A stretch of 43,237 nt of DNA from a virus (Duplodnaviria; Caudoviricetes). The notes beneath the pieces were generated by a model. That model worked only from the letters and a program-made list of their open reading frames with translations, did not search any database and was not told where the DNA came from. The stretch spans positions 1 to 43,237 of the IMG/VR virus record IMGVR_UViG_3300042334_001174, one strand, 5' to 3'. Position 1 is the first letter of the stretch; every line of letters begins with the position of its first letter. Made by a program: the position numbers and the translations under genes. Positions 2,561-38,800 of the stretch are shown one piece after another.

Positions 2561-2775
2561 CTGCCACCCAAGCCTGCCCCATCGCCCGAGCCGAGGCCAG
2601 CCTAGCCGCCATCTTCGCCGCCTGCCAAGCCTACAAGGCCCGCCACGCCCAGGCCCGGCAGGCCAAGGCCGACGCCCGGCTCGCCCAGGGCGGGCTATGG
2701 TGGCGGAAGGAGGGGAACGAAATAGGTCAGCCACCGCCGCCGGGAGCGAGCGAGGCCGACACGAAAAATCTATGA
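2557..2775 (+). CDS. Hypothetical protein whose C-terminus is encoded in the first attC-like site
   Basis: ATGA overlaps at both ends, reads through AAC 2716-2718 in frame. Confidence 0.6.
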   Translation: MTATQACPIARAEASLAAIFAACQAYKARHAQARQAKADARLAQGGLWWRKEGNEIGQPPPPGASEADTKNL

Positions 2776-2837
2776 GACACAACAGGGCAACGAAACGGAA
2801 ACGCGGGCGGGTGTTGGCTGCACCGCCATTGTTAGGC
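2712..2837 (-). repeat. attC-like site 1
   Basis: GGGGAAC-gaaata-GGTCAGCCA ... TTGGCTG(C)ACC-gccatt-GTTAGGC, with an unpaired C in the right arm. Confidence 0.7.
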
Positions 2838-3029
2838 ACGTTTGGCGAGCAATACGAAGTCAGCCTCGACTACCGGAAGCCGGATGGATACTGGGTGTGC
2901 TCGCACAAAGAACACGTCACCGTGCCGGTGGTGCATGGAGTGAATGAGAAGAAAAACCACGCAGCGGCGGAAGCCATCGCAAAACAACGATACCCAAAAT
3001 GCAGAATCAACAGCGTGACATACTGCTAG
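2772..3029 (+). CDS. Hypothetical cassette protein (cassette A)
   Basis: ATG 2772 lies inside attC 1 with an ATGA overlap, and the stop falls just before attC 2. This is the C-terminal part of ORF-track 2406..3029. Confidence 0.6.
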   Translation: MRHNRATKRKRGRVLAAPPLLGTFGEQYEVSLDYRKPDGYWVCSHKEHVTVPVVHGVNEKKNHAAAEAIAKQRYPKCRINSVTYC

Positions 3030-3030
3030 T

Positions 3031-3129
3031 GCCTAACGACAAGCTGACCCACGGAGGCCCGACTAATGAGCATTGAATCCACAAAAGACGAGCAACGGGA
3101 CTCCGTTGCGGTCCAGCGCCTTGTTCGGC
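3031..3129 (-). repeat. attC-like site 2
   Basis: GCCTAAC-gacaa-GCTGACCCACGGAG ... CTCCGTTGCGGTC(C)AGC-gcctt-GTTCGGC. Confidence 0.8.
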
Positions 3130-3302
3130 AGGTTGAATGCCTGACCGAAGCTGTGGCGTCTCTCGCCTACTGCCTTCAGCGCGGCCCATGCTGGGGGTCA
3201 ACTGGCGAGGTAAACAACGCACTCCAGAAAGCGTGGCGGCTGGTGGAGCAAGCCCGAAGCAATCCGCCGAACGCCAAGGATCACGCGACCGATGGGGCTT
3301 AG
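3066..3302 (+). CDS. Hypothetical cassette protein (cassette B)
   Basis: Starts in the loop of attC 2 and ends inside attC 3. Confidence 0.6.
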   Translation: MSIESTKDEQRDSVAVQRLVRQVECLTEAVASLAYCLQRGPCWGSTGEVNNALQKAWRLVEQARSNPPNAKDHATDGA

Positions 3303-3401
3303 CCACAAATGAATCTCAACCGCCAAACGATATGACCGAAGCTGTAAACCCCGAAGTAAAAGAGCAGGCCCCATCTGGTCGCGTGCATCCTCTTGTTCGC
3401 C
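3266..3401 (-). repeat. attC-like site 3
   Basis: GCCGAAC-gccaa-GGATCACGCGACCGATGGGGC ... GCCCCATC(T)GGTCGCGTG(C)ATCC-tctt-GTTCGCC, a perfect stem with two extrahelical bases. Confidence 0.85.
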
Positions 3402-3724
3402 ATTCGTTGTCGCGCAAGGCTGGATGGCGGATGCCTGCGAATACCGTGAAGGTGTCGCGCCCTGGCAAATGGGGGAATCCGTTTCTCGTCGGGCCGGAAC
3501 GCACGCAAGTCGAGGCAGTGGGAGCGTTCCGAATCTGGCTCACGACTGAGGGCGTGACGGCTGGAATCCACGAACGCAAACAGTGGATGCTCGACCACTT
3601 GCACGAACTGCGCGGGAAAAATCTGGCGTGCTGGTGCAAGGCAGGCACGCCGTGCCATGCCGATGTGCTGCTCGATATGGCGAACGCTAGCCTATCCCAC
3701 GGGGAGGGCGGAAAAAAATCATGA
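3332..3724 (+). CDS. DUF4326 family protein (cassette C)
   Basis: VSRPGKWGNPF, ELRGKNLACWC and PCHADVL motifs. ATG 3332 lies in the loop of attC 3. Confidence 0.85.
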   Translation: MTEAVNPEVKEQAPSGRVHPLVRHSLSRKAGWRMPANTVKVSRPGKWGNPFLVGPERTQVEAVGAFRIWLTTEGVTAGIHERKQWMLDHLHELRGKNLACWCKAGTPCHADVLLDMANASLSHGEGGKKS

Positions 3725-3776
3725 ATACTGAAACGACATCGCCGCCCTCCCCGTTGGGATCAGGCAATTGTTCTCC
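3679..3776 (-). repeat. attC-like site 4
   Basis: GGCGAAC-gcta-GCCTATCCCACGGGGAGGGCGG ... CCGCCCTCCCCG(T)TGGGAT(C)AGGC-aatt-GTTCTCC, a perfect stem with two extrahelical bases. Confidence 0.85.
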
Positions 3777-4419
3777 GTTGCTGGATCTACGGTTGACCGA
3801 CTGTATGGAGTTCCTGCGGGCGACTCCCGACAATGCCTATGACCTCGCCATCGTAGATCCGCCGTATGGACTCGGTGACGTGCTTGTGGCTGGTGGAACG
3901 TGGTCGGTCAAGTATCAGGCCAAGGGCGCGAAATGGGACGTAAAACCAGAGGCGGAATACTTCGAGCAACTCCGTCGCGTGGCGAAAAACTGGATCGTAT
4001 GGGGAGCGAACTACTACTCGGAACACCTCCCGCCAACGCGGGGCTTCGTCGTGTGGCACAAGCCGAACATGGAAGGGATGCACACGATGGCGAACTGTGA
4101 ACTGGCGTGGACGAGCTTCGACAGGAACGCCAAGACGGTATCAATCACGCGGCCAAACGAGGACAGAATCCACGTCTGCCAAAAGCCGGTGAAGCTCTAC
4201 GAATGGCTACTGGCGAACTACGCCAAGCCGGGCGACCGCATCCTCGATACGCACATGGGAAGCGGAAGCATCGCCATCGCCTGCCACTTCAGGGGGCATC
4301 CGCTCACTGCCTGCGAGATCGACCCCGAATACTTCGCCGCCGCAAAAGCCCGCATTGAACGGGAGACGGCGCAACTCACCCTTTTTACGGAGAACAGTAC
4401 GGATCATCCAACGAATTGA
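3721..4419 (+). CDS. DNA N6-adenine/N4-cytosine methyltransferase, beta class (cassette D)
   Basis: Catalytic DPPY precedes HVCQKPVKLY and the SAM-binding ILDTHMGSGS, with ACEID downstream. Confidence 0.92.
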   Translation: MNTETTSPPSPLGSGNCSPLLDLRLTDCMEFLRATPDNAYDLAIVDPPYGLGDVLVAGGTWSVKYQAKGAKWDVKPEAEYFEQLRRVAKNWIVWGANYYSEHLPPTRGFVVWHKPNMEGMHTMANCELAWTSFDRNAKTVSITRPNEDRIHVCQKPVKLYEWLLANYAKPGDRILDTHMGSGSIAIACHFRGHPLTACEIDPEYFAAAKARIERETAQLTLFTENSTDHPTN

Positions 4420-4443
4420 CGACATATCACGCATCCGTATGGT
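4416..4443 (+). promoter_or_regulatory. Possible sigma70 promoter at the end of the cassette array
   Basis: TTGACG-N16-TATGGT, 20 nt before ATG 4463. Confidence 0.3.
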
Positions 4444-4462
4444 GCAAACCCACACCAACCCC

Positions 4463-23816: not shown

Positions 23817-23834
23817 ATATTGTGTGTAGTTATG
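23817..23834 (-). promoter_or_regulatory. Conserved upstream motif CATAACTACACACAATAT (copy 3)
   Basis: Exact 18-mer match to 13317-13334, 3 nt before the portal ATG. Confidence 0.7.
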
Positions 23835-26800
23835 GCGTGGCTGTGGCTTTGTGCAAGCCCATTGCGTGGGCCTGTGCCCTGGCGGCGGCCATGGCGTCTT
23901 CGCGGGCCTTCTTGAACGCCTTAATTAAGCTCTCGCCCGGCGCTGCCTTCTCGCTTGGCATGGCCTTGGCTGCCACCTTGGCGGCATTGGCGGCATAAAG
24001 GCGGCCTGCCAGTTCGGCAAACTGGCGTTTCTTGGCCGGATCTATGATGGGCACGGGCTTGGCCTTGCCGGGAGGGTCGGCGTTGTAGTCGTCCCGTTGG
24101 AGCGGTTGCGGGCTCCAGCGTTTCGTTGGGTGTAGGCGGTTGGCGCGGTAGAGAAGTGCGTCGGGCTGGGGTGTGACTTTGGTGTTGGCCTGGAATAGCA
24201 GGCGGGCAGGCGGCGTGAAGGCTTTGGGCAGGCGCTCGCCGGTTGTGCTGATTTTGGGCTGGGCGGCGAAGACTGGCAGTTTGGGGGCAATGGTGGGGTT
24301 TGGCAGGGCGGCATAGCCTGGGCCTGCCGTTGTGCGCTCGCGGAGCACGTCGTCCATGTTGCGGAGCGGCTGCTTGATGAGATTGGGAATCACGTTGTTC
24401 ATCAGCATTTTTACCCCGGCGCTTTGGTCGGGATTCTCGCGCTTCTCTTCCACGTCGCGGACAAACTGCATGGCGTTGGCGAAGCCTTGCAGGAATGATT
24501 TATCCTCCAGTGACGAGACGAGGCTGGACAGCATGTAGGTGGAGTAGCTGGCGTTTTCGCCCTGTGACTTGAGGCGTTTGACCTCCTGATAGTTGCGGTA
24601 GGCGTCGATCCACGTTGTCAGGAGCGTGGCAGCGGGCTCGTAGCGGCCAAAGGGCAGGCTGCCAAGCACCTTGCCTTTGCCGTCCTGCCAGACAATGGAG
24701 TTTTCCCCGCCGTATTTGCGCAAGAACTGATCTGTGGCGGCCCGCTCCTTGAGGGAGTGCGAGCGGGTGCCGACAAGTAGCACAGGCTTTTCGTCGTCGT
24801 TGTCGTCACCTTCCAGCATGGAGGCCAAGGCCAGCCAGCCAAGCCCGGCAAGCAGCGTCTCGGAGGCGTCTTTGATCTGCATGGCCTTCGGGTAGGATTT
24901 AATCACGGGCACGCCTTTCTTGCCCATTGCCAGCCAGCCAGCCCGCGTGAGGCCGTAGAGCAGGCTGATAGCCGAGCCGCCAGCCTTTTTGATGCCGGTG
25001 CGCACGATGTTGGTGGGGGTGCGTTGGAATGGGAAGATCCAGCGCATGAGGCTACCCACGAATTTACGGGAGCGGATGCGTTTTTGGAGCTTGGCGGCAA
25101 GGTCTGAGTCGCCCTTGGCCTCGGCCTCAGCGAGTAGCTTTTCCAAGTCTTTGATGCCTTTATAGCCGCCTAGCACGGTGTCCACGATCTCGGTTGCGGA
25201 GTTGTCGTCTTGGAACAGGAGTTCCTCGGCGGTTTTCATCACCTCCCCCCACACGGCGCTGGATGTGTCGTTGAGGGTGTTGGCAATCTCGGTGTCGATG
25301 AAGGCGGCCCGCGCCTGCCCTTTCAGGCCTTGGCGCTTGGCCTCCACATGGGCCCGGCGGTAGGCCACGGCAGATGCCTCGGCATACATGATGGCCGTCT
25401 TGAAGAAGGCGTCTGTGAAGCGGAGCACACGGCCCGGCAGGCGGCTGATTCGGCCTGCCTGCCCGCCCACGCTGGCGCGGATGTTACCCACCTTGTCGAG
25501 GTCGCCGTCCACCACGTCGATTTCAAGCGGCTGGCCGAGGTATTTGTGGCGTATGGTGTCGCCTTCGGTGAGGAAGGTTTCGCGGGCCATCTCAAAGGCT
25601 GGGCCGATGCCCTGCCAGAAGCCTTTTAAAATGTGCTTGAACTCGCGGAACTGCGCGGAGTTCGGGTCTTGGTAGGCAAGGTTCAGTGTTGCCTCGGCGA
25701 GGCGCTGGCCGGTGTAGTGCCATGCCACCTGCGCGGCGTTGCCGGTGATGTTTGCCACCTGGGTCTGCGGGCCTGACAGGAGGGGCCAGTTGATCCAGTA
25801 TTCGTAAACCTTGTCGAAGGCGCTGGCCTTGGCTGCCGTGTATTCGCGGGCGAAGGCGTAGTAGTTCGCCATGTCGTCGGGGTCGAATGGCACAAACACG
25901 CGGACCTTTTGGCCGTTTGGCGTGTTGATGACTTTGGACATTAGCTTGCGGGAGTTGCGAGCCTTGGCGGATTGCAGGGCATAGCCCATCACGCGGTTTA
26001 CCTCTGCCGTCACTTGGTCGAGAGTTTGTTTTTTGCCTTTGATGAGTGTCCGCCAGTCTTCCAAAGGCCTAATCTTTGGCGGCAGCCCCAGCCCCACGGC
26101 CTTCTTGAGCCTGGCAAAGCCAGCCTTGATGAGGCCTCCAAAGCCTGTGCCCGCCTTGACCTGGGCGGCCACGGCGGGGCGGATGATGGCGGCGGTGGCG
26201 TCGTGGATGAACTTGCCTACGTCGTCTTGGTTGAGGTTGAGATAGTTTGCAATGTGCTCGTCGGAGAAGCCTCGGAAGGCGAGGCGCATGATGTTGTAGC
26301 CGTCGTTGTCTTTGCCTTTGTAGGCGTCGAGGCCTTCTTTGACGGCAGGGAGGTCGAGGATGGCGGATTGCAGGGCTACGCGGTCGGTGCCGGAGAGCAT
26401 AAGGTCGTCTTCGGTGACTCCCATGTTCTTGAGCACGGCTTGCTTGATCTTCTCGCTCTCGGCGTCGTCCTTCTCCAGCAACTCCTCTTTCGTCTCCTGG
26501 GCGCGGGCCGTCTTTAGCGCGGCCTCCACGTCTGCCCGGCGGCTGCCCCGTGCCTCGGCTAGCTCGGCCTCCAGGCTGGCGATGCGGCGGGCCTTGCCTG
26601 CCTGGGTGGGCAGGATGCGGAGCTTACGGCGGACGGCCTCGCTTGGGCCAAACACGATGTCGAGGGCTTTGGTCCAGCGTTCCTGCGGGCTTTCCAACGG
26701 GTCACGGCGGGCGCTCATGGCCTGGGCTAGGCGGGTGCCGGTGTCCAGGTAGTAGTTGCCTACCTTGTTGAGGAGGGCGCGGATATTCTTGTCGCCAGTG

Positions 26801-29800
26801 AGGCGGGCCTCGCGGGTGAGGAACTGGAACGCCTGCCCAAGTACGGCCTGCTCGTCCACGTCGAGGAGCTTGCTTTCTTCGGCCATGTCGGCGGCCCACT
26901 GCACGTACTTCTCGGGGTCGCTCTCGAACGTCTTCTTGGCCCATTCGCGGAGCTTGTCGAGTTGCACGGTTTCCGGCCCGCCTAGCTGGTCGCGGGCGGC
27001 TGTCAAAGCCTGATACACGGCGCGGGCTTCGGGATACTCGAACTGTTTGGACAGGTTGCGCGCCGACATCTTGCCACTTGCCTGCACGGCGTCGATGGCG
27101 TCGGGGTCGTTGCGTAGCGCCTCCCTGGCGGCGGCCTCCTCCTCGGCTAGGCGTTGCTGCTCTGCCATGAAGGCGGCCAAGTCTGGGTCGGCCTCTTCGT
27201 CGGCCTCGGGCTGGCTGGCCTCTTGGCTGGCTGCCGGGCCGCCTTCGGGGGCGGGCGGGTTGCGGAGGATGGATTGGCTGGCGGGGTTGAAGCGTTCGGA
27301 GAGAGGGATGACTTGGCCGGACTCGTCGCTGGAGGTGTTTGTCCAGCGTTCCATGACTGCCTGAATGCTTTCCCGGAGTTCAAAGCGAGCCTTGGAGCGT
27401 TCACGCGAGGTGTCTTCGTCCAGGTTGCGGGCGTTCTTCAGTCGGTCGTCGTAGTCGGTGTAGTTGTGGCGGGCGTAGGCTTGGGCGACAAGGAAGGTGT
27501 CCGTGTTGTCTGTGTTGCGCGTTTTGGCGATGTCGATGGCTTCCTCGCGGGTCATGCCGGGGAAGTCGCGCTGTAGTTTTTCGACAAAGGACGGCTGGGC
27601 TAAAATCTCCAGCTTGGGAATATCGTCCCAATCTCCAAAGCGATCTTTGCCGCGTGTGGTGTCCCCGGTGTAGTAAACGAGCCTCTTGTCTTCGGACGAC
27701 TCTTTGACATACATTTTGACCGCATCGTGCAAGGATAGGGTCACTTGTTCTTCGTCCATCCAGCCTGATTCTCCATCGTTGGTTTCGACGGCGTAATATG
27801 GCTGCTCTGCATCCCAGGTATCGCGGTCTTTGGAATCTACAGTTGGAACTTGCCACCATGATCCGGGCGCTTCTTCCCAGATGTCTGAGATGTTGCGCGG
27901 CACATTTCCCCATGAGGCATCTTGGTAAACGGTCAGTTCTTTGTCGAGATGGGCATTATAACCATTGTCCGAATCTTCGACATCTTCAGCTAAAAAGGTT
28001 TTGTCTCTAATAGAGATTTCCCACTTTTTGCCAGCAAACTCTACGGTGATCGGGGATTGGTCGGCATCAAAGTCGGCGACTGGACGAGGATCAATCTCCT
28101 CGTCGTATTTTTTTAACAAACGCTGATATAGGGTCTCGGTGTCGGTGGCATCCCGCCCCGCCGTGACGGCCTGCCCGGCGGGCGGCAGGGCTAGGCTGGC
28201 GGGCTGGCCTTCGTCGGCGGGCTTGGTAATTGTCACCATCTGAGTACGCACGCCTGTCTGGCGGAAGGCGTCGGAGCCTGCGAAGCTGCCCTCTGGCATG
28301 GCCTCATGGCTGCCGCCTACGCTGTCCAGCCACTCACGGAAGGCCGTAGCCTGCTTGTCTTGGCGGTAGAATGGCCCGGCGGACATGATGGCGACGAGCT
28401 TGCCGCCCGGTTTCAGGAACTTATAGGCGTGCCGGATGTGCTCCATATCCTGCCCGTTCTCAAAGGGCGGGTTCATCACCACGGCATCATATTTTGGCTC
28501 TGGCTCTACGCTGGTAAAGTCGTTGTCGATGACGTTGACGCCTTTAGCGGTGAGGATGTCGCGGAGGCGGTTGGAAAGCTCGATAGCGTCCACCTCGGCC
28601 CCAGCCTCCTGCATTGCCTCGGCAATGTCGCCTTTGCCTGCGCTTGGCTCCAGTACCTTCATGCCGGGCTCAATGCCTGCTATACCCACCATCTCGTCAA
28701 TGACGGCGCGGGGGGTGGGGAAGAAGCCGGGTAGCTTCATGCCGACTAGCTCGCGCTCCATCTTTTTGATGGGGTCTTCTTTGGCTGCTTGGCCTCGGTA
28801 TTGCAGGAACTCGCGCAGGGCAGCCCGCAGGCTTGGCAGGTTGGTCAGGCCCATGGCCTTGAGGCGGTCGTACGTCTCGTACTTCCACTTGATCGTGTCC
28901 CAGACGGGCTTGCCGCGCTCGGTGACTTTCTGGGCGAGTTCCTTCACATCGTCCATTTCGGAGTCGGAGCGCAGGGTTACGGCTTGCCCTTCGTTCTCGT
29001 TCATGCGGATCTTTGCCACGCGCTCGGCCAGCAGCTTCGCGCCGGGCGTTTCACGGCCTTTCTCTACCAATCGCAGTATATCGCCTTTGTCGAGGTATGG
29101 GTATGGAATGCGGGTGGCATCCATCATCTCCGCCGTCGGGCCTCCTGCCTCGGTCTTTTCGCGGTCCATCATGCCCATCTTGCGGTCACGAATCCAATAC
29201 GTCATAGCTCCACGCGCCATACCGTCCAGTGTCTCCACATGCGTTCCCATCCGCACGCCGTCTAGGTGCGTGGCCTCGCCTGATTCCATGGCGGCGGCTA
29301 GGTTGCGCATCGTCTGGGCCATGGCTTTCATCCCTCGGGCCGTGGCTTCTTGCCCGGCGGCCTCGCGGGCACGCTTGGCGGTGTTGGTCTTGCGGTCGGC
29401 GTTCAGGATGCCATCAGCCTTGCCATCCAGAACCTCAGCCACGGCGGTCAGGCGGCTGGCGGTGGCGGACTTCTTGGCCTCCTGGCGTTCCTGAATCTGC
29501 TCTTTCTGGTCCACTGTCTCGCCTTTGGATACGGCAATGAAGTTCTCGGCGGCGGCTCGGGTGGTGAACTGGAAGCCGGGCACGGCTCCGCCCTTGGCGT
29601 AGGACGAGTAGTAGCCGCCGAGTTTCTTGGAGGCGGCGTTGAGGCTGTCGTAAACGGGGCGCTCCACACGTTCGGAGAGCTTCACCACAAAGAGGTCGTG
29701 GCCTTTCTGTGTGTGCTTTGTTTCGATGATGTCGGCCTCTACGCCGGATGCCACGCCATAAACGCGGGCCTTGGCCTCTGTGCGGGCCTGCTCTTGGGCC

Positions 29801-32800
29801 TTGCGGTCGATGCCACGCACGGCGTCGTAGGCGGCTAGTTGCTCGGGAGTGAGCACGGACTCGCCTTTCTTGCGCACGGCATCATTACGGGCCTGTGAGC
29901 TTTTGAGCTTCAGAACTTCCTTCACTTCTGCCTCGCTCATGGCTTTGCGGCCTGTGCTCCACACAAAGCGGTCCCATTCCTCGGGCGTTTCCGGGTTGGT
30001 GAGTGCCTTCTCTTTGGCTGCCTTGCTGGCCTCGGCAGCCTCGCGGCGGGCCTTGGCTTGCTCCACAATCATTTCGTCGGTCCACTTGGCTACTTTCTCG
30101 TCCATCGCGGCGTCTTTGTTGGCTTGGAAATCGCCACCATAAGAGTAGGAAATGGAATCGTCAGGATTGAAGTACAGATCCAGTGTGCTTAGCACGCTTT
30201 CAGCAATCGAAGCCTTGCCGTCTGACTTGCGGGCGCTCATGCCTGCCATGGGCAAAAGCTCGTCCACTTTCATCTTGTTGAGGTCGGCCAAGATGGCGGG
30301 GCGCTGGGCTTTGAGTTGAGCCCATGCCGTGCGGACCTGCTCGGCGGTCACTTCGCCTTTGCGGAGCTGGGCAATGAAGGCGCGGGCGCTGTCAAAGCCT
30401 GTTATAGGCTTCACCTGCCCGCCCTGCCCTTCGGGGGCTGGCGCTTGGGCAGGCTGGGCCGCCTCTTGGCCCGGCTGGGCTGCGGCCTGTTTGGCGGCGT
30501 TGATAGCCTCCCATGAGGTAGGGTCGTTCTCGCGGTCCCATTTGGAAACAGCCTCATCCACCAATTTATCGGCTATGGCTCCAAGCGCCCTTTCGTGGGC
30601 GTTTTGTTGCTGTTCCCACTCGGACAGTTGGGAGTATCCTTTTTCGGTCAATTTGGCCTCTTTGGTTTTTGTCACCCATCCTGCACGGATGCCTACGGCC
30701 AAGCGGGCGGGCGTGAGCTTGTCTGGTTTGTAAGGTTTGCGGTTTGCACGATCACGCAAGGCTTGCAGGGTTTCTAGGTCGTCTGGGGCTGGTGGTGGAA
30801 GGGACGGATCTTTGCCGGCAAAGACACGGGCGGCCTCGGCTGCCTCTTCTCTGGTCTGGCCCGGCTGGGCGGGCGGCTCGGCTGCCGGGCTGGCAGAGGC
30901 TAGGCGGCGTTGATTCTCCTGGGCGAGGGCAAGTGCTCGGGCCTTGGTGGCTGGGCTGGCGTAGGGCTTGAGGGCAAGCGGGCCAAGGCGTAGAAGCTCG
31001 CGGCCAAGCTCTTCCTCGGTGAGGTCGGCAACGGGGTTGCTGGTGGCGTGGTATTCGGTGATAAACTTAGCGAATGCGTCCTCGCTGGCCTTGACGCCTG
31101 CCGGGAGTTTTTGGCGTGTCCATGCCTCCCAGATGGCTCGGGAGCGTTTGTTGTCAGGGTGTAGTAGGTTAGTCCATTCGCCGGTTTCGATAGCCTCCAT
31201 CATCTTTTCGCCATTCTTGACGGCCACATCCTCTGGAATGCTATAGTCGCGGTAAAACTGTGCAAACCTCTCCGCCGTTGGCTTGAACGGCTCTTGCGGC
31301 GGCAGGGTGAACTTTTCGGCCTTCTTCTTCTCGGGCCGTACTTGGCCTGCCATGTTCATAGGCCGGGGCTTGGCCGCCTTTGGCGCTGCCGGGCTGGCCT
31401 CTGCCGTGACAGGCGGGGCCGGGCGGGCGGTAGAGTAGGCTGGCGCTCCGTTCACGCGCATAGGCATAAGCACAAACAGGGCCTTGCCTGCCCGCAGGGT
31501 GGCGGGGCTTACGTCGTCGCCAATGCGTAGCTCAATCTGCTCGTTGCCAAGGTTGCGGGCTACGCGCAGGACGGTCTGGAAGTAGTCGGGGCTGTAGGCG
31601 GCGAGAATTTTGGCCTCGGGCTGGATGTTGTGGGCGTAGTCGCCTCGGTTGATGTCGCTAGCGAATAGGCCAAGGCTGCCGTCTGGGTTGCGGTAGAGGG
31701 AGACGGCTTTGGAGGCTGTGCTACTTTCATTTGGCAGTTCTTTGATAATAGCTCGGGCTTGGCTCATCAGGCTGAACCAGCGGGCGGTGTCGAGGGTGTA
31801 GGGCGTGAAGGCTTTGTCATCGGGGATGATTGCCTCCATCGTTGGATTTTGTTCACCTTCGGGCCATGGCTGCGCATTACCTTTTTCGTCATAGACGATA
31901 GCCTCTTGGCCTTTACCTCCGCCATTTTCATGCTCTACACGCACAGCAAAGCGGCCATTGGTTGCCCAAAGGTAAGCGCCTTCACCTTTTACTTTTTGCA
32001 AACCTTCGCCGCGTGTCGTGTCCGTGGACACCATCGGGAACACCGCCGCCACCACGTCCGCCGTGGTCTTGGCCTTCTTGAGGGCTGGCACCGCTGTAGG
32101 GGCCTGGGCCGTGGGCTTGGCTGGCAGGTCGTCCTTGGCCTGCGAGACGGGGAACTTATCGGCCTTCTTCTGGAAGCGGTAGAGGGCTTCTTTCTCGTTC
32201 AGGATGGTGAACGTACCGTCGCCGGGCACTTCAATGGTGACGTAGCCAATCAGGCGCTCGGCATCTGCCTTGGCGGCGGCTAGTTCGCTTGCATACGTCT
32301 TGCGCTCCTCTTCGTTGAGGCTGTCCCAATTACGAAACTTGTCCTCAAGGTTGGTAATCGCGTCCTTCTGTTCCTGTGTCATGTCCGCCCGCTTTGGCGC
32401 GGCCTTCACGGCGGCAGCCACCTCGGCTAGTAGGAACTTCTTCTGCCCCTTGGCGGCGGCGGCATCGAACGGCGCGGCCTGCTTGGCTGGCTCAGGCATG
32501 GCGGCCTCTTCGGCTACGGCCTCGGCCTGGGCTGGCGTTACGGAGGCTGGGAGGGCCGGGACTTCTTCGGCAGTCTCTTCCTCTTTGATAAGCATTTGAC
32601 TGTCGCCAAACGGAACGCCATTCAAAACCTGCTGGTCTGTGAGCTTGTTGACGCTGTAAAGCCCATAGAGTGAATCGCCGATTTTGAACAATCCTGGCAG
32701 AACCTTCGTTACGGGCGCATTGCCTCCATAGTAGGCGCGGAACCACTTACTCACCATTTCAGCAGTGACGGGGACGTTTGCCTCTGCGGTGGTAGGCGCT

Positions 32801-35800
32801 TCTGGCGAGGTTGCTGGCGGCATTGTCGCCTTGAGGCGTGCAATCAACTGAGGGGCTAAACTTTTGGCGGTGCCTTTGTAGTTCGGGTTAGCCAATAGGT
32901 CGATCAAGTAGCCTTTGGCGTCGTCGGATGCGGTTCCTGCCTTGAGGTCTTTGAGGGCTGCTGCTCGGCTGCCGTCTGAGTTCTCCGAGGCAAAGAATCT
33001 ACTCAAGTCCGCCCAAAGCGTCTGGTCGGCCTTGGCAGCCACGGGGGCTGGGCTGGCCTGATACACGGCCTGCCAGTCGGGCTTTTCTTCCAGTGTGGAG
33101 TCAAAGCCGGTCATCAGCCGCCAAAAGGCCCGGCTGTATTGCCGGAGCTGCCCGCCTGGGGCTAGCTTGTCGAGGCGGGCGGCTAGCTCGGCTGGCGTCT
33201 TCACGCCTGCGTCAACCAGCACAGAGGCCGCCTTCATCATGGCGTCTCGGCGGTCGCGTGGTAGGTCGGTTTGCTCTAGGCTGCCCTGCGGGGGAAGTCG
33301 GAGGCTTGCTTGATTGCTTCCTGTAGAATCAAGTCCTCCACTTCCTCCTGATCTTTGATTTTGGATACCTGTTGGAACAACCGATCCAATTCGGTCGTTG
33401 AGGGTTCCGCGTTTGTTGAGTTCTCGGAGGTAAGAGTCATAAGATTCTGGGGTGTTGCCTGCTTTTCGGATGGATGCCGCCCACATAGCGGCTTGAACTT
33501 GTCTTGGCTGCCAGCCTAGCACGTTTGCTATCTGTGTTAACACTTGCTGGCCTTTTTGAAACTGTTTTGCTGTTGGTGAATCAACGCCAAAAAGCATCCT
33601 TGAGATATGCCGATCGACAACAACGACCTCGTCGGCTCCGGTGTTGGCCTGTTGGTATGCTGCAATCTTTTGGCCTTGGACCTGGGCGGCGTCTTTGACC
33701 CGTTGCAGGTTTTTAATCACCGCAGGCAAATAGCCTTCAAAGGGTGCGCCTGTTTTGAGTTGGACATACGCTTTCAGGGCCAGCCCTACGTTTGCCTTAA
33801 CTGAGGCCGCTTGGGAGGTGACAGAAAGGATTCTTTGGAAAAGGTCTGCATCGACACCAAAAAACTCGGTGAGCGTGTCTTCGTGGCGCTGATACCAGTC
33901 TTTCCAGTCAGAAGAGTCTTCGGTAGCTTTAATCAACTGGGCCCTTGTCTGTTTCAGACGCAGCCCGCTAGGCGGCAGAAACAGGCCGGTGAAGGCCTCG
34001 GCAAGTGCCTTGTCGGCTTCATCGGTCTGGCTGGCCTGGGCTGGCTTTGCCTGCGGGGCGGGCTGGGCCTCGTTCTGCGCGTAAGCGGCTTTGAGTTTGG
34101 CGCTCGCAGTATCTAGGTCCGCTTGTCTGGACGCCTTCTCTTGCGCGTATTCTTTCCGCAGTTTGTCAACCTTGTCGGCGCTTTTCCCGCCCCCCACACT
34201 TGGGTACTGCAAACTTTCTAGGCGTTTACGCGCATTACGCTCGGCCTCCTCAAGAGGTCGCGTGTTAATTAGCCCGGCAGCCTCCGGCCCGGCCTGTATC
34301 TCCAGCCCGGCCTTGGCGGCCATGTCGGCCACGATGGCCTGCACGGCGTCTGCCTCGGCCTCAATGCGGGCGGCTTGGGCCTTGTCGGTGACAAGTTTGG
34401 CGATGTCGCGGAGCTGGGCCACGAAGTCGCGGAGCAGGGCAAGCAGGCGGTCGCGGAAGGCCGGGTCTTGGCTGGCCTCGATCTCGGCTTGGTTGCTGAT
34501 CTTGCCGCGAAGACGGGCTTCGACTAGCTGGGCAAACCATTCATGGGCTGCGGCAAACTCCTTGTCATCCTGCCAGAAGTCGGTAAGGCCACTGTCGGAG
34601 AGGTAGAGGGCCTTGCTGGCGGCCTTGGCCTCGGGGGTGAGAAGGTTGTAAAGGCCAATGATCTTGGCTCCATCCATGTTACCGATGGCGGCCTTGTGGA
34701 TGAACTCATGCAGAATGAACGTGTCCATGCCTTCGCGGGCGGCCTCGGTGGTGGCGTGCTTGGCGGTGAGGCGGTCAATGAGCTTTTCAGGGTTGATGAA
34801 GAGGATGCTGCCCTTTCTGCCCACTGGCTTGACTTCCAACTCTCCGCTCTTTTCGCGCAGTTCTTTGGCGTAAACGTCATAGTCCACGGCCCCTGTCATG
34901 GCCTTGAGCCTAGCCCGCAGGCGCTTGGCAAGGTCGAGCTTGCGGCCTGCCAAATCCTTGGCGGCCTTGTCTGGCCTGCCGACGAGGCTTTGGCGGACGG
35001 TGGCCTCATACTCGGCTAGGACGGCCTCTGCCCGGCCCTCTGGCGTGGCTGGGCGGGGCGGCTGGGCGGGCTGGCTATCAAATCCAGGGAATCCACCTTT
35101 AACCGCCTCTTTTGTGGCAGCGTCTTCGGTGGATTTCACAAGAATTTTTGCCGCATCTTCCGCTGAGTATGAGCCTTGCCCGTTGGCGAGATACAACCAC
35201 CCGTCAGAGCCGATGGATTCAATCTTGAAGACTGGGCCTTTCCCGTTAGCGCGGACAAAATCGCCCACTTTGAACGCCTCCGCCTGCCCGGCTGGCTGGG
35301 CGGGCTGGGCCTTGGCTTGGCTGGCTTTGGTGGCCTCGTATTCCTCCACAGTGTCTCTAAGTTCCCAAGCCATTACACCCCAGCGAAATTCAAATGTGTC
35401 ACGCCCTGGCGATATTGTTACCTTCTCTCCTGTTTCTGGATCTGTTTTTTCGACGCGCTTAAACTCGCCTGATTTTGTAATCAGCCCTTCTTTTTTGAGT
35501 TCACGGACTATCTCGGCACCACGTTTATTCCTTGTGGCGATCTCAATAATCTCCTTGTCCGTATATTTGTTCTGCAAATAACTAAATACGCCATCTTCAA
35601 GGCTGGTGGCCTCCGCCTGCCCGGCTAGCTGGCTGGCTGGGGCCGGGCTGGGGGCGGGGCGGTAAACGTAGAGGTCGCCTTCGCGGGTGTAGCCCTCGGG
35701 GAGGGCGATGCCGTAGGCGTCCACGGCGGCAGCGTTGACGGGGCTATTTGCTTTGGTGGCATCTGCGAGAATGCGCTTGTGGAAACTTGCCACCAATGCC

Positions 35801-38800
35801 TGCCCGGCTGCCGTCTGGCTTCCGATTCTCTTTGTTGGCAGTTCCTTTTTTGCTATCGCGATTATCTCGGTGCCTATGCCGCGCCGCTGGTATGCGGGCT
35901 CCACTACAAACGCTTTACCGTCGCCATACCCCACGTTTTTTTCGCCGTCGAAAGCGTGGACTCCACCGTATTGATCTGTGAGGAAGTCGATACCGTTTAC
36001 GGACGAGACTTGTGTTTTGTTTTTGCGCGTCTCATTGAATTGGTGGTCTGCAAAGTAGTCGGCAGGCAGTCCACGGTCTTCATTTTCATCAAAGTGATTG
36101 TTTCTCCACTCCTCCGGCGTCATCTGCTCAGGCGGCTTGGCGGCAGGCGCAGGCTGGCTGGCCTCTTCCTGCCCGGCCTGGGCGGGTTGGCGGAGTTTAT
36201 TTAATTGCCGCAGGAGCACCTGTTTATCTGGATATGGATGCCCAAGCCCGCGTGTCAAATCAGCGTGAAGATCGTTTAGTTCGTTTTTATCCATGCCGAG
36301 AAGATCGGCATCGCTAAGTGATTGCAGCCTTTGCTCTGCTTCTGTCTGTCTTGCAACTTTCGCGTCTCTCGACTGTTGGGCTAATTCCCCTAGTTGAATA
36401 GATTGATTCGTTACGCGCCTAAATTCTTTAGCCTCCTCGGTCTGGCCGCCTTGGGGGCGGGCTTGTGTCTGGGCTGGCTCTGGCCTGGCCTCGACTGGCG
36501 CGGCCTTGGCTTGGCTGGCGATGAACTCGGCCAGTGTGGGCGGCGTGAATGCCTCGCCTACTGCCACGGCCTTGGCCTGCTCGCGGACGGCGGCGGTGTA
36601 ATATGTGAGGATAGAGCGCAATTCTGCCTCTGGAATGCCCATCTTGGCAGACACGCGGGCGAGTTTGTTCTTGGCGGCTTCCCTCTCAGCGGCCATCTGT
36701 TGATCGGATAGGTTGCGGCCTGACATGGCTTTACCCATCTTGGCGGCGTAGTCGTAGGCGTCGGCGTCTGTATCGCTTTGGAAGTTGGCGTATGAGCTTC
36801 CACCCTTCGCACCTTTGCCGAATGCCCGGCGGGCGCTTGGCGGCGATTGCTTGGGCTTCTTGGCGGCCCTGGCCTTCTGCTCGGGCGTGGCGCGGGCCTC
36901 TTGGGCGGGGCTTAGGCCGGTTGGCGAAGCTGCTGGTGCAGGGGTGGAGCTCGTAATGAATCTTTCAGCGACCTTGAATGTCCTGCCGCCTTGAGTGAGC
37001 GCGGGGTGTTTCCACTCGCCATCCTCGTAAACAGGATCTCCTGTAATGGTAATATCGCCCTCACTGCGGTACACGTCAGATTTGATGATTGCACCTTTCC
37101 CAAGTTGCTTGGCGGGGGCGGGCTCCGCCGTAGGTGCTGGCGTGTCGTTGGCAGCATCAGCCTCGGCGGCGGCCTTTGCAAAGGCGCTGGATGTGCGAGC
37201 GGGAGCGGCTGGCGCGGGTGTCGGGGTGGTTGCAGGCGAAAGAGTTGAACTTTCGTTTTCTGATAATGAGTCAGATGTCTTAACCTCTGGACCAGCCTGC
37301 GGTGTGGATTCTGCCTTGGCAGGCGCGGCCTGTCCAGCCTTTTTCTTGGCGGGCTGGTTGAGTTGGCGTGCCACTTCGTCGGCTTTGCTGTAAAGCTCTA
37401 CGATGATGTCGGGACGCAGTTTGTGGACCTCTCTGCGGATAGCCTCAAGTTGTCCAGCGTTGGCGTCATTGACAAGAATGGCGCTCACGGATGCCATATC
37501 TTTGATGCCTTTCCCCTTTTTGGATTCTGCGGCTGATTGCACCAAAATAAAGGGGCCATCTCTATAAGAGGTTCCTCCACCAGTCGTGCCAGCCATCGCT
37601 GCTGCTGATCCCTTTCCTACTGTAAGAGGAGCCACATCGAGCCCCCCTGGCTCTACACTGCCACGCTTGCCGCGAGTGGGATCTACATTGTTTTGCAGCA
37701 GCCCCATAAGAGCGTCGAACGCTCCTGATAGGGTGCCATACTTCGCCATTCCGTGTGTGGCAAGGTTTTCACCTCCTACACTGTGAGCACGCTCAAAGGC
37801 GGCGTTCACATCTTCGTTTGCCATGCCTTCTTCAAACCACTCGTCTGTGGCTCTGCGGCGAACCTTGCCTTTTTCTGTCCAATCCCAATCTTCGATTTCG
37901 GACGGCCTCGCTTTCTTGGTTGGCGATGCGGCTGGCTTGGCCTTGGCGGCGGCCTCTTCGGCGTCGATCTGGGCCTTTCGCTCGGCCTCGGTGAGGTTGA
38001 CCAAGCCCGCCAAGCCTTCCTGGGCCTCGTCTGTCAGCCACTCGGCGGCGGCGTTGCGGAGGACTGGCTTGTCTTTATAGAGGTAAACGAGGGGTGTTAC
38101 TTTGGTGTCTGGCGTAGGCTTGCCGCCCTTGTTGATGAATCCAAGCGCCTCCTGCTCCTCAATGTCGAGGCTTTCGAGACTCTGGCCCTGGGCGATCTTG
38201 ACCACGCCTGCGGCGGCCTGCCTAGCCACGGCGGCAGGCGGGCGGCCTGTGCGCTTGGCGGTGGCAGCCACGGATTGCGGGAGGGGAGTAGCGCCTGTGG
38301 GGTTGAACTTGGCGATTTGATTGGCAATCGCTTTAGATATTGCAGTTGGCGCAGTCAGCCCAGCCTCGGCGGCGGCGGCGACATCTTGCGGTCTAGGCCG
38401 AATAGGGGCAACTAATCCCGCTTGTGCAGCGGCTTCTATCGGATTGGGTCGTTTAGGAGCGACCAAACCAGCTACAGTAGCGGCTTCTATCGGATCTTGT
38501 TCTGTAAGCGTCTCGGGCGCTGGCGTCGGAGCCGGGCCAGCCTCGCGGGGCTGAACTGGCATAGGCGCCGGGCCTTCTTCCGGGTTTGGCGCCATGCCAG
38601 GGCCTTCGGTGCCTGCTTGGCGGCGGGCCTGCATGAGCGCGCCTGCACCGCCCATGAGGGCTGTGACGCCTGCCAGTTCGGGTAAGGTGTTGGCGAAGTT
38701 TTTGAAGGTGGCGACGGGATCGGCAGAGGCTGCGGACTCTTGGAGGACAGTGGTAAAGTATTCGTCGGCGATTTCTTCGGGCAATTCTTCGGCAGCCCCT

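Follow-up and report, generated by a model that had tools for sequence, protein, structure and literature searches.

Cassettes in reverse: a phage array of attC-type sites whose read-through genes cross the crossover triplet in an asparagine frame

The textbook integron cassette consists of a promoterless gene followed by a non-coding attC site. Here we describe an array of the opposite polarity in a tailed phage (Caudoviricetes), the IMG/VR virus record IMGVR_UViG_3300042334_001174, all 43,237 nucleotides (nt) of which were analysed and are called the window below. At the end of the plus-strand replication region of this phage, a resident gene is followed by four attC-type hairpins and one target half-site, which together form a four-cassette array (Table 1). 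Unlike in bacterial integrons, it is the bottom strand of attC that carries the genes; each hairpin moves with the gene downstream of it, and the open reading frames (ORFs) that read through the crossover triplet AAC do so as asparagine, taking a short C-terminal tail and a stop from the neighbouring element.

The array and the polarity of its sites

The hallmark of attC, AAC and GTT boxes around an imperfect inverted repeat, is present at sites 1–4: a custom hairpin detector calls sites 2–4, and site 1, which it missed at the thresholds used, has the boxes and a weaker stem. The cassette ends are complementary: in 4/4 cases the seven bases of a GTT box pair exactly with those of the AAC box that follows. 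The same procedure applied to 150 shuffled loci gave 14 sites and no chained pair; a repeat search of the window did not show the recombination sites. The upstream ORF is open into AAC as Asn at four of the five junctions (2716, 3270, 3683 and 4393), the codon model chooses the Asn frame for all four of these ORFs, and at each the ORF crosses the crossover and receives its stop from the inserted cassette, as in ORF-11 of class 1 integrons. An earlier note on this DNA had listed five junctions, and its AAC positions, tails and four Asn read-throughs are exactly as it gave them, with the qualification that site 5 is a half-site lacking a hairpin. With four attC-type sites (custom detector plus site boxes) and no integrase found in the 43-kb record, the array falls under the definition of an attC-site cluster that has no integron integrase (CALIN). 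A complete integron, with intI beside the array, was not seen in this record, which is about 70% complete, nor is there a classical cassette with a top-strand gene followed by its own attC.

According to the cited passages of PMC5027507, it is the bottom strand that recombines, and its extrahelical bases lie in the arm opposite AAC. The extra bases of sites 2–4 (C and T bulges) sit in the 3' arm of the plus strand, opposite AAC, and the coding strand is therefore the attC bottom strand. The same orientation was found when a single DNA pattern was used to search viral (37/64 parts) and bacterial (6/64 parts) collections and 80 loci from each were taken with full flanks: all 51 chained viral cassettes with a confident coding call are reversed (88 examined), versus 58 of 60 classical among the chained bacterial cassettes with such a call (118 examined). 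The bacterial genomes with the same hairpin pattern belong mostly to Planctomycetota and Verrucomicrobiota. Hairpin identity averages 0.85 where the downstream gene is in common (13 pairs) versus 0.54 where the upstream gene is (5 pairs).

The transcribed sites are predicted to fold at −49 to −70 kcal/mol, flanks included. Such folding might be expected of hairpins that act in the RNA, as regulatory structures or as terminators, in which case the Asn codons would be a coincidence. The chain of complementary boxes, the bulge geometry, the pattern common with bacterial integrons and the precise loss of a unit at AAC speak against this explanation, as do the absence of any Rfam family match for the hairpins and a plus-strand terminator prediction that called none of the four. 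Since it is also contradicted by the cassette loss and swaps described below, we regard it as scarcely credible.

Table 1. Features of the cassette array, in window coordinates
Feature	Position (strand)	AAC start	Asn-frame tail stop	Remarks
Resident phage gene	2557..2775 (+)			72 aa, function unassigned; core 2557-2715, borrowed tail from Asn codon 2716; precedes the array
attC-type site 1	2712..2837 (+)	2716	2773	AAC 2716-2718, GTT box 2831-2837; weakest stem of the four; ATGA 2772-2775 (+) holds resident-gene stop and cassette A ATG
Cassette A unit	2718..3036 (+)			ORF 2772-3029, 85 aa; own stop TAG 3027-3029, 8 nt before next AAC
attC-type site 2	3031..3129 (+)	3035	3074	extra C, C, T in 3' arm; unused Asn-frame tail, stop 3074-3076; GGAGG ahead of ATG 3066
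Cassette B unit	3037..3271 (+)			ORF 3066-3302, 78 aa; AAC 3270 read as Asn69
attC-type site 3	3266..3401 (+)	3270	3300	extra C and T in 3' arm; stop of the tail at 3300-3302; cassette C begins at 3332
Mini-ORF, site 3 loop	3309..3335 (+)			8 codons, Asn frame; begins 6 nt past tail stop; ATGA overlap with DUF4326 start
Cassette C unit	3272..3684 (+)			ORF 3332-3724, DUF4326 (PF14216); AAC 3683 read as the family's conserved Asn
attC-type site 4	3679..3776 (+)	3683	3722	extra C and T six bases apart in 3' arm; ATGA 3721-3724
Cassette D unit	3685..4394 (+)			710 bp; ORF 3721-4419, N6/N4 DNA methyltransferase (PF01555)
Terminal target half-site (site 5)	4389..4450 (+)	4393	4417	no hairpin, attI- or attG-like; right border approximate; 8-residue tail and stop 4417-4419 for upstream gene

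The asparagine frame and the joints between genes

The frame in which genes meet AAC was counted in 509 viral sequences (window included), collected with three DNA patterns and two protein queries, which yielded 234 distinct chained cassettes. Of these, 153 are reversed with confidence and represent 121 protein families from 90 loci; a single one is classical with confidence, and the remaining 80 had no confident call and were left out. The second viral search pattern returned mostly chance matches, 80 of its 120 loci having no site at all. Of the 153 reversed cassettes, the gene ends ahead of the AAC box in 48 and within it in 57; the other 48 read through AAC, 47 of them in the Asn frame (45 protein families versus 1). 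For the 148 cassettes that end within 30 nt of AAC or beyond it, the Asn frame has 47 read-throughs to 20 stops, and the other two frames have 1/59 and 0/21, together 1/80 (Fisher p = 2e-21). This value, like the other p-values of this census, is inflated by relatedness, as related phages and common hairpins make the counts non-independent; the window's own cassettes are counted too. The bacterial control (78 confidently classical cassettes of 144; 18 of the 78 end further away) gave 1/9 in the Asn frame and 6/29 and 2/13 in the others, so that only one of nine read-throughs there is Asn. This difference is in keeping with the polarity of the cassettes: a hairpin that is part of the following cassette calls for a common frame, and one that is part of the gene's own cassette does not.

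The bias is also seen without the codon model: frames open for at least 40 codons across AAC number 128 (Asn), 30 and 58, and PHROG matches occur in 16 of the 128 open Asn frames versus none of the 88 others (p = 2.5e-4). Read-through also clusters by array, 26 of 37 multi-cassette loci being uniform (permutation p = 0.0002); 48 of the 65 cassettes in loci with read-through use it. Read-through is locked to the Asn frame, a conclusion that is well supported; as a general rule for cassettes, which the earlier note had made of it, the lock does not hold, as only 48 of 153 read through. Among the read-through cassettes, the commonest named cargo is DNA methyltransferases (8 of the 16 with a PHROG match), and Pro precedes the Asn in 22 of 47.

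Hairpins that no gene reads into have stops in the same frame. Of the unused hairpins in read-through arrays, 15 of 16 supply a stop in the Asn frame, and 7 and 7 do so in the others, versus 48 of 85 hairpins in other arrays (p = 0.004); an Asn-frame fusion with the next gene would arise in 0/65 versus 20/84 elsewhere (p = 4e-6). A conserved attC sequence that would force such stops was considered and rejected for the hairpins: the bottom strands of bacterial sites have stops in 59/67/48 of 122 by frame (Asn first), with no bias. The expectation that any cassette order would yield terminated ORFs consequently stands for the window, where all five sites offer an Asn-frame stop, and fails for other arrays, in which 20 of 84 would fuse. 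In eight arrays (L079, L085, L090, L097, L113, L116, L118 and L119) the Asn frame continues for about 260–380 nt into the next gene; most genes there stop by themselves a few bases before AAC, and a cassette without its own stop would yield a fusion protein.

Could true reversed cassettes carry tails that are merely incidental? Capture or insertion would then have taken place at Asn codons near gene ends, each gene using the first stop available, and there would be no selection on tails or coupling beyond the avoidance of long fusions. Several features fit this explanation: the Asn of DUF4326 is ancestral, nearly all non-cassette homologues ending in A-N; tails range from 2 to 26 codons with no sequence in common; ATGA is frequent wherever A follows ATG; integrases insert at short GWT targets (as described in cited passages of bioRxiv 2022.09.11.507474); and in either of the other two frames a stop can be formed with the A bases of AAC (35 such stops at −1), which alone would lower read-through there. 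The retention of Asn-frame stops by unused hairpins and the lack of fusions in read-through arrays are not expected from it, and neither is the placement of ATGA overlaps: of 31 hairpins, 13 have one in the Asn frame versus 2 and 1 in the others. Moreover, bacterial arrays have the same stop-overlap option, yet eight of their nine read-throughs are in frames other than Asn. On balance we judge incidental tails to be rather improbable.

Comparison with homologues locates the joints within the proteins. Methyltransferase homologues outside cassettes start close to the residue that follows the GTT box and stop a few positions short of the Asn, in line with the check on the joints that had been proposed, and in DUF4326 the Asn itself is conserved in the family, its codon in non-cassette homologues being AAT or AAC. 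Asn69 of cassette B is invariant in six of six aligned proteins, which have six different tails. The 26 family members of the resident gene are conserved as far as a GGxWW motif and have varying tails beyond it: at the protein level many homologues have one common short tail and others different Asn-led tails. The common tail, of the SPTQ[HY]ND type, was observed in P0003, P0005, P0007-P0010, P0013 and others, and these homologues may represent the allele with an empty site.

All four cassette ATGs (2772, 3066, 3332 and 3721) lie between the hairpin arms, in mRNA regions predicted to be fairly open (mean unpaired probability around AUG 0.59–0.72). The claim that genes start in the hairpin loop agrees with the predicted starts in the window and at many long sites of phage arrays (69/103), and not with those at short ones (1/46). 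The ATGA overlaps at 2772-2775 and 3721-3724 are present as claimed. At the remaining sites, the tail stops 32 nt before ATG 3332 (site 3) and 22 nt before ATG 4439 (site 5), and the unused tail of site 2 stops 8 nt after ATG 3066. Of 31 hairpins in read-through arrays, 23 have an Asn-frame stop no more than 10 nt from the ATG in the loop, versus 3 and 3 for the other frames; the corresponding numbers in other arrays are 17/15/19 of 39 by frame (Asn first). The mini-ORF in the loop of site 3 may serve as a translational relay and may also be due to chance, such relays being seen in only two of eight uncoupled hairpins, site 3 included.

Exchange of cassettes, the terminal site and the surroundings

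Related phages display precise gain and loss of units at the AAC/GTT crossover. Up to 3685, three sister contigs (L001, L003 and L004) have the same sequence as the window, and comparison with the join expected after loss of 3685-4394 gives 0/390 mismatches, the join falling in a 4-base common stretch around AAC; their DUF4326 protein ends in NSTDHPTN, versus NASLSHGEGGKKS in the window. Another locus (L461) has the same hairpin and methyltransferase between other neighbours (94.7% identity over 3679-4398) and the tail NSEL, and a third group (L651, L653 and L658, identical to one another) has a different methyltransferase cassette between a resident-gene homologue and the same terminal site. 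One platform is therefore found with three contents, terminal site 5 follows three different cassette genes, and three different proteins end in one common tail. Among eight lake sequencing runs, five contain the 710-nt skip and three show none, and the long and the short form occur together in two. Of the five run-level joints, a single one has at least 31 letters on its short side, so it is the IMG/VR contigs that support the skip. The prediction of swappable C-termini is borne out by these cases, in each of which the tail changes with the neighbour, and, as far as sequence comparison can tell, recombination joints lie inside coding sequence and C-termini are swapped in nature.

The length of the common stretch bears on what moves the cassettes. 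The same joints could be the work of a phage-encoded or other non-IntI tyrosine recombinase, or of homologous or illegitimate recombination between hairpins: no integrase is present in the contig, about 30% of the genome may be missing, and an IntI-type motif had 0 matches in the viral loci searched, whose flanks were short. Four bases, however, are too few for homologous recombination, the site pattern recurs in arrays of Planctomycetota and Verrucomicrobiota, with the IntI-type motif in 3 of 132 loci, and phage attC sites recombine with IntI1 (cited passages of PMC9892861). A mover of this other kind thus seems very unlikely to us.

Site 5 has no hairpin, has GTT on the minus strand and is reused by different cassettes in related phages; to judge from these comparisons, it acts as a standing insertion point. 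The consensus of 30 terminal sites is weak, some rows probably being missed hairpins. Seven of the 30 (L121, L123, L512, L528, L550, L565 and L582) have TAG three codons after the Asn, which on the opposite strand is a CTA that precedes GTT by six bases, an arrangement that may resemble the L box of attI. Bacterial attI sites were not definable from three IntI loci, and no consensus with site 5 was established. The one promoter-like match, at 4416-4443, is at chance level. L654, L656 and L657, considered as terminal-site relatives, proved to be chance matches to the terminal-site pattern. Contigs from runs X11 and X15 match the window at the terminal site only (about 4390-4430 or 4454) and have other DNA flanking it on either side, so window 4389-4450 may be a conserved phage insertion element.

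The ORF of cassette A has no Pfam or PHROG match, and related-locus searches for cassettes A and B returned identical copies only. The DNA runs that contain the array are lake water metagenomes; RNA runs, in contigs only, contained at most 8% of the query words, and two metagenome scans gave no finds. The record is linear and encodes an identified primosomal protein, DnaB helicase, major head protein and endolysin. A six-base tandem repeat at 564-599 translates into an Asn-Gln run in the primosomal protein; such runs are typical of replication initiator genes. On the minus strand, a 5812-aa ORF occupies 23830-41268. Motifs recognized by eye point to a stretch resembling methyltransferases close to the C-terminal third of the product, which as a whole may be reminiscent of the giant DarB-like virion proteins. 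L001, L003 and L004 are identical to the window through the array and only 85–91% identical downstream of about 4630, into tail-region genes, which suggests a recombination boundary directly after the array in these sister phages.

Mechanism and relation to known integron systems

We consider it probable that the locus is a back-to-front phage array of the integron type, in which AAC serves as an in-frame Asn codon for the genes that read through it, and that it is likely shuffled by a host integron integrase. The mobile unit extends from the C of one AAC through the hairpin and the gene body to the AA of the next; with borders at AA/C, the hairpin carries the start of its own gene (at long sites) as well as a tail and stop for the gene upstream. 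These borders, the polarity, the tail swaps and the Asn-frame bias are documented by the sequences. An IntI-type enzyme, most likely supplied in trans by the host, would recombine the folded plus strand at AA|C, and new cassettes would enter at site 5, the first position in classical terms, which is where the variable cassette D sits. The frame convention is probably self-reinforcing: hairpins would retain an Asn-frame stop because some of their neighbours need one, genes without their own stop would be viable only if they arrive in the Asn frame, and arrivals in other frames would usually end on a stop overlapping AAC. A possible seed of the rule is the target site itself, with its TAG three codons after Asn in some terminal sites. 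By analogy with class 1 integrons (cited passages of the review PMC8876359), translation of the left arm might unfold the stem in the mRNA and help ribosomes to start again in the loop, the least supported step of this scheme.

Several observations weigh against this reading. No PF00589 match was found in the 43-kb record (about 70% complete), nor an IntI motif in its six frames. In the census, 105 of the 153 cassettes (about 69%) terminate by themselves, 81 of the 234 chained cassettes were excluded from the frame count, and frames were mostly based on the codon model, besides the non-independence of the counts; L418 holds the lone read-through in another frame, and in L145 an Asn-frame read-through runs for 224 codons. 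Tight coupling in every cassette order, as the earlier note had proposed, fails even here, where stop and start overlap directly at only two of five junctions, and among used tails with a loop ATG only 7 of 11 stop within 10 nt of it. Finally, the short form without cassette D has about 14 further differences downstream; it is therefore a separate lineage, and current excision and its direction are not demonstrated by it.

A more far-reaching possibility, which we put forward tentatively and with somewhat more doubt than belief, is that phages possess a mirror-image cassette system with a common frame rule. The hairpin would be a portable joint of tail, stop and start, through which any cassette fits any Asn-ending operon gene and stays expressed, and new cassettes could also arise by this geometry, wherever a hairpin is inserted at an Asn codon close to the end of a gene, an origin to which the ancestral Asn of DUF4326 points. 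If this is true, the question of cassette birth becomes testable. The three contents of one platform provide concrete substrates for the study of strand choice, cassette birth and translational coupling. Should the cassettes be shuffled by an integrase of the host, phages would be making use of an adaptation system of bacteria to exchange accessory genes (DNA methyltransferases among them) with a compact operon left intact. A practical caution also follows, as many short phage proteins probably have N- and C-terminal peptides encoded by recombination sites.

The phage array resembles classical cassettes in its AAC...GTT boxes, extra bases opposite AAC, complementary ends and overall hairpin pattern (cited passages of PMC5027507). 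The two differ in polarity, reversed in 2/60 bacterial versus 51/51 phage cassettes, and in the ownership of the hairpin after a gene, which in the phage belongs to the next cassette and makes the tail exchangeable; the phage site precedes its own gene and is apparently coding from both sides, and the frame rule recurs in three groups of phage arrays obtained with different search patterns. Phage attC arrays without intI, with DNA methyltransferases in their cargo and sites that are IntI1 substrates, were described in 2023 (PMC9892861, which covers 17 phage CALINs); according to its cited passages, two arrays were termed typical and one had divergent attC sites. These CALINs are like the present array in lacking intI and in their methyltransferase cargo. 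Bottom-strand genes, starts within attC, read-through of the crossover and a frame rule are not described in the cited text, whose supplement may show orientations. Our literature search, from whose coverage subscription literature was mostly absent, found no paper on reversed phage cassettes or the Asn frame rule. Phage CALINs with IntI1 activity, the borrowed stop of ORF-11, engineered coding attC sites and attG insertion are thus known already, and reversed phage cassettes with natural tail swaps and an Asn frame rule are a variant of the integron cassette system for which no published account was found.

In class 1 integrons, ORF-11 and ORF-18 in attI1 and short ORFs in attC cross the crossover and acquire a stop from the inserted cassette, with coupled translation, and translation within attC relieves the hairpin block (Hanau-Bercot 2002 and Jacquier 2009, as related in the cited passages of the review PMC8876359). 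ORF-11 is a leader peptide at one site; in the phage, it is the C-termini of cargo and resident proteins that are involved, at most junctions of an array and in one fixed frame. Cassettes also enter non-integron DNA at a short GWT target in attG secondary sites and single attC sites lacking integron integrase (SALINs), as described in the cited passages of bioRxiv 2022.09.11.507474. Site 5 is like attG in having GTT on the minus strand and unlike it in being reused by different cassettes, in a comparison that covers the GTT and the reuse of the site. Protein-coding attC sites have been engineered for in-frame shuffling (Nivina et al. 2020, cited passages of PMC7439510). The phage sites are a natural counterpart of these: besides a tail with its stop they encode a new start, and for the most part they avoid fusion.

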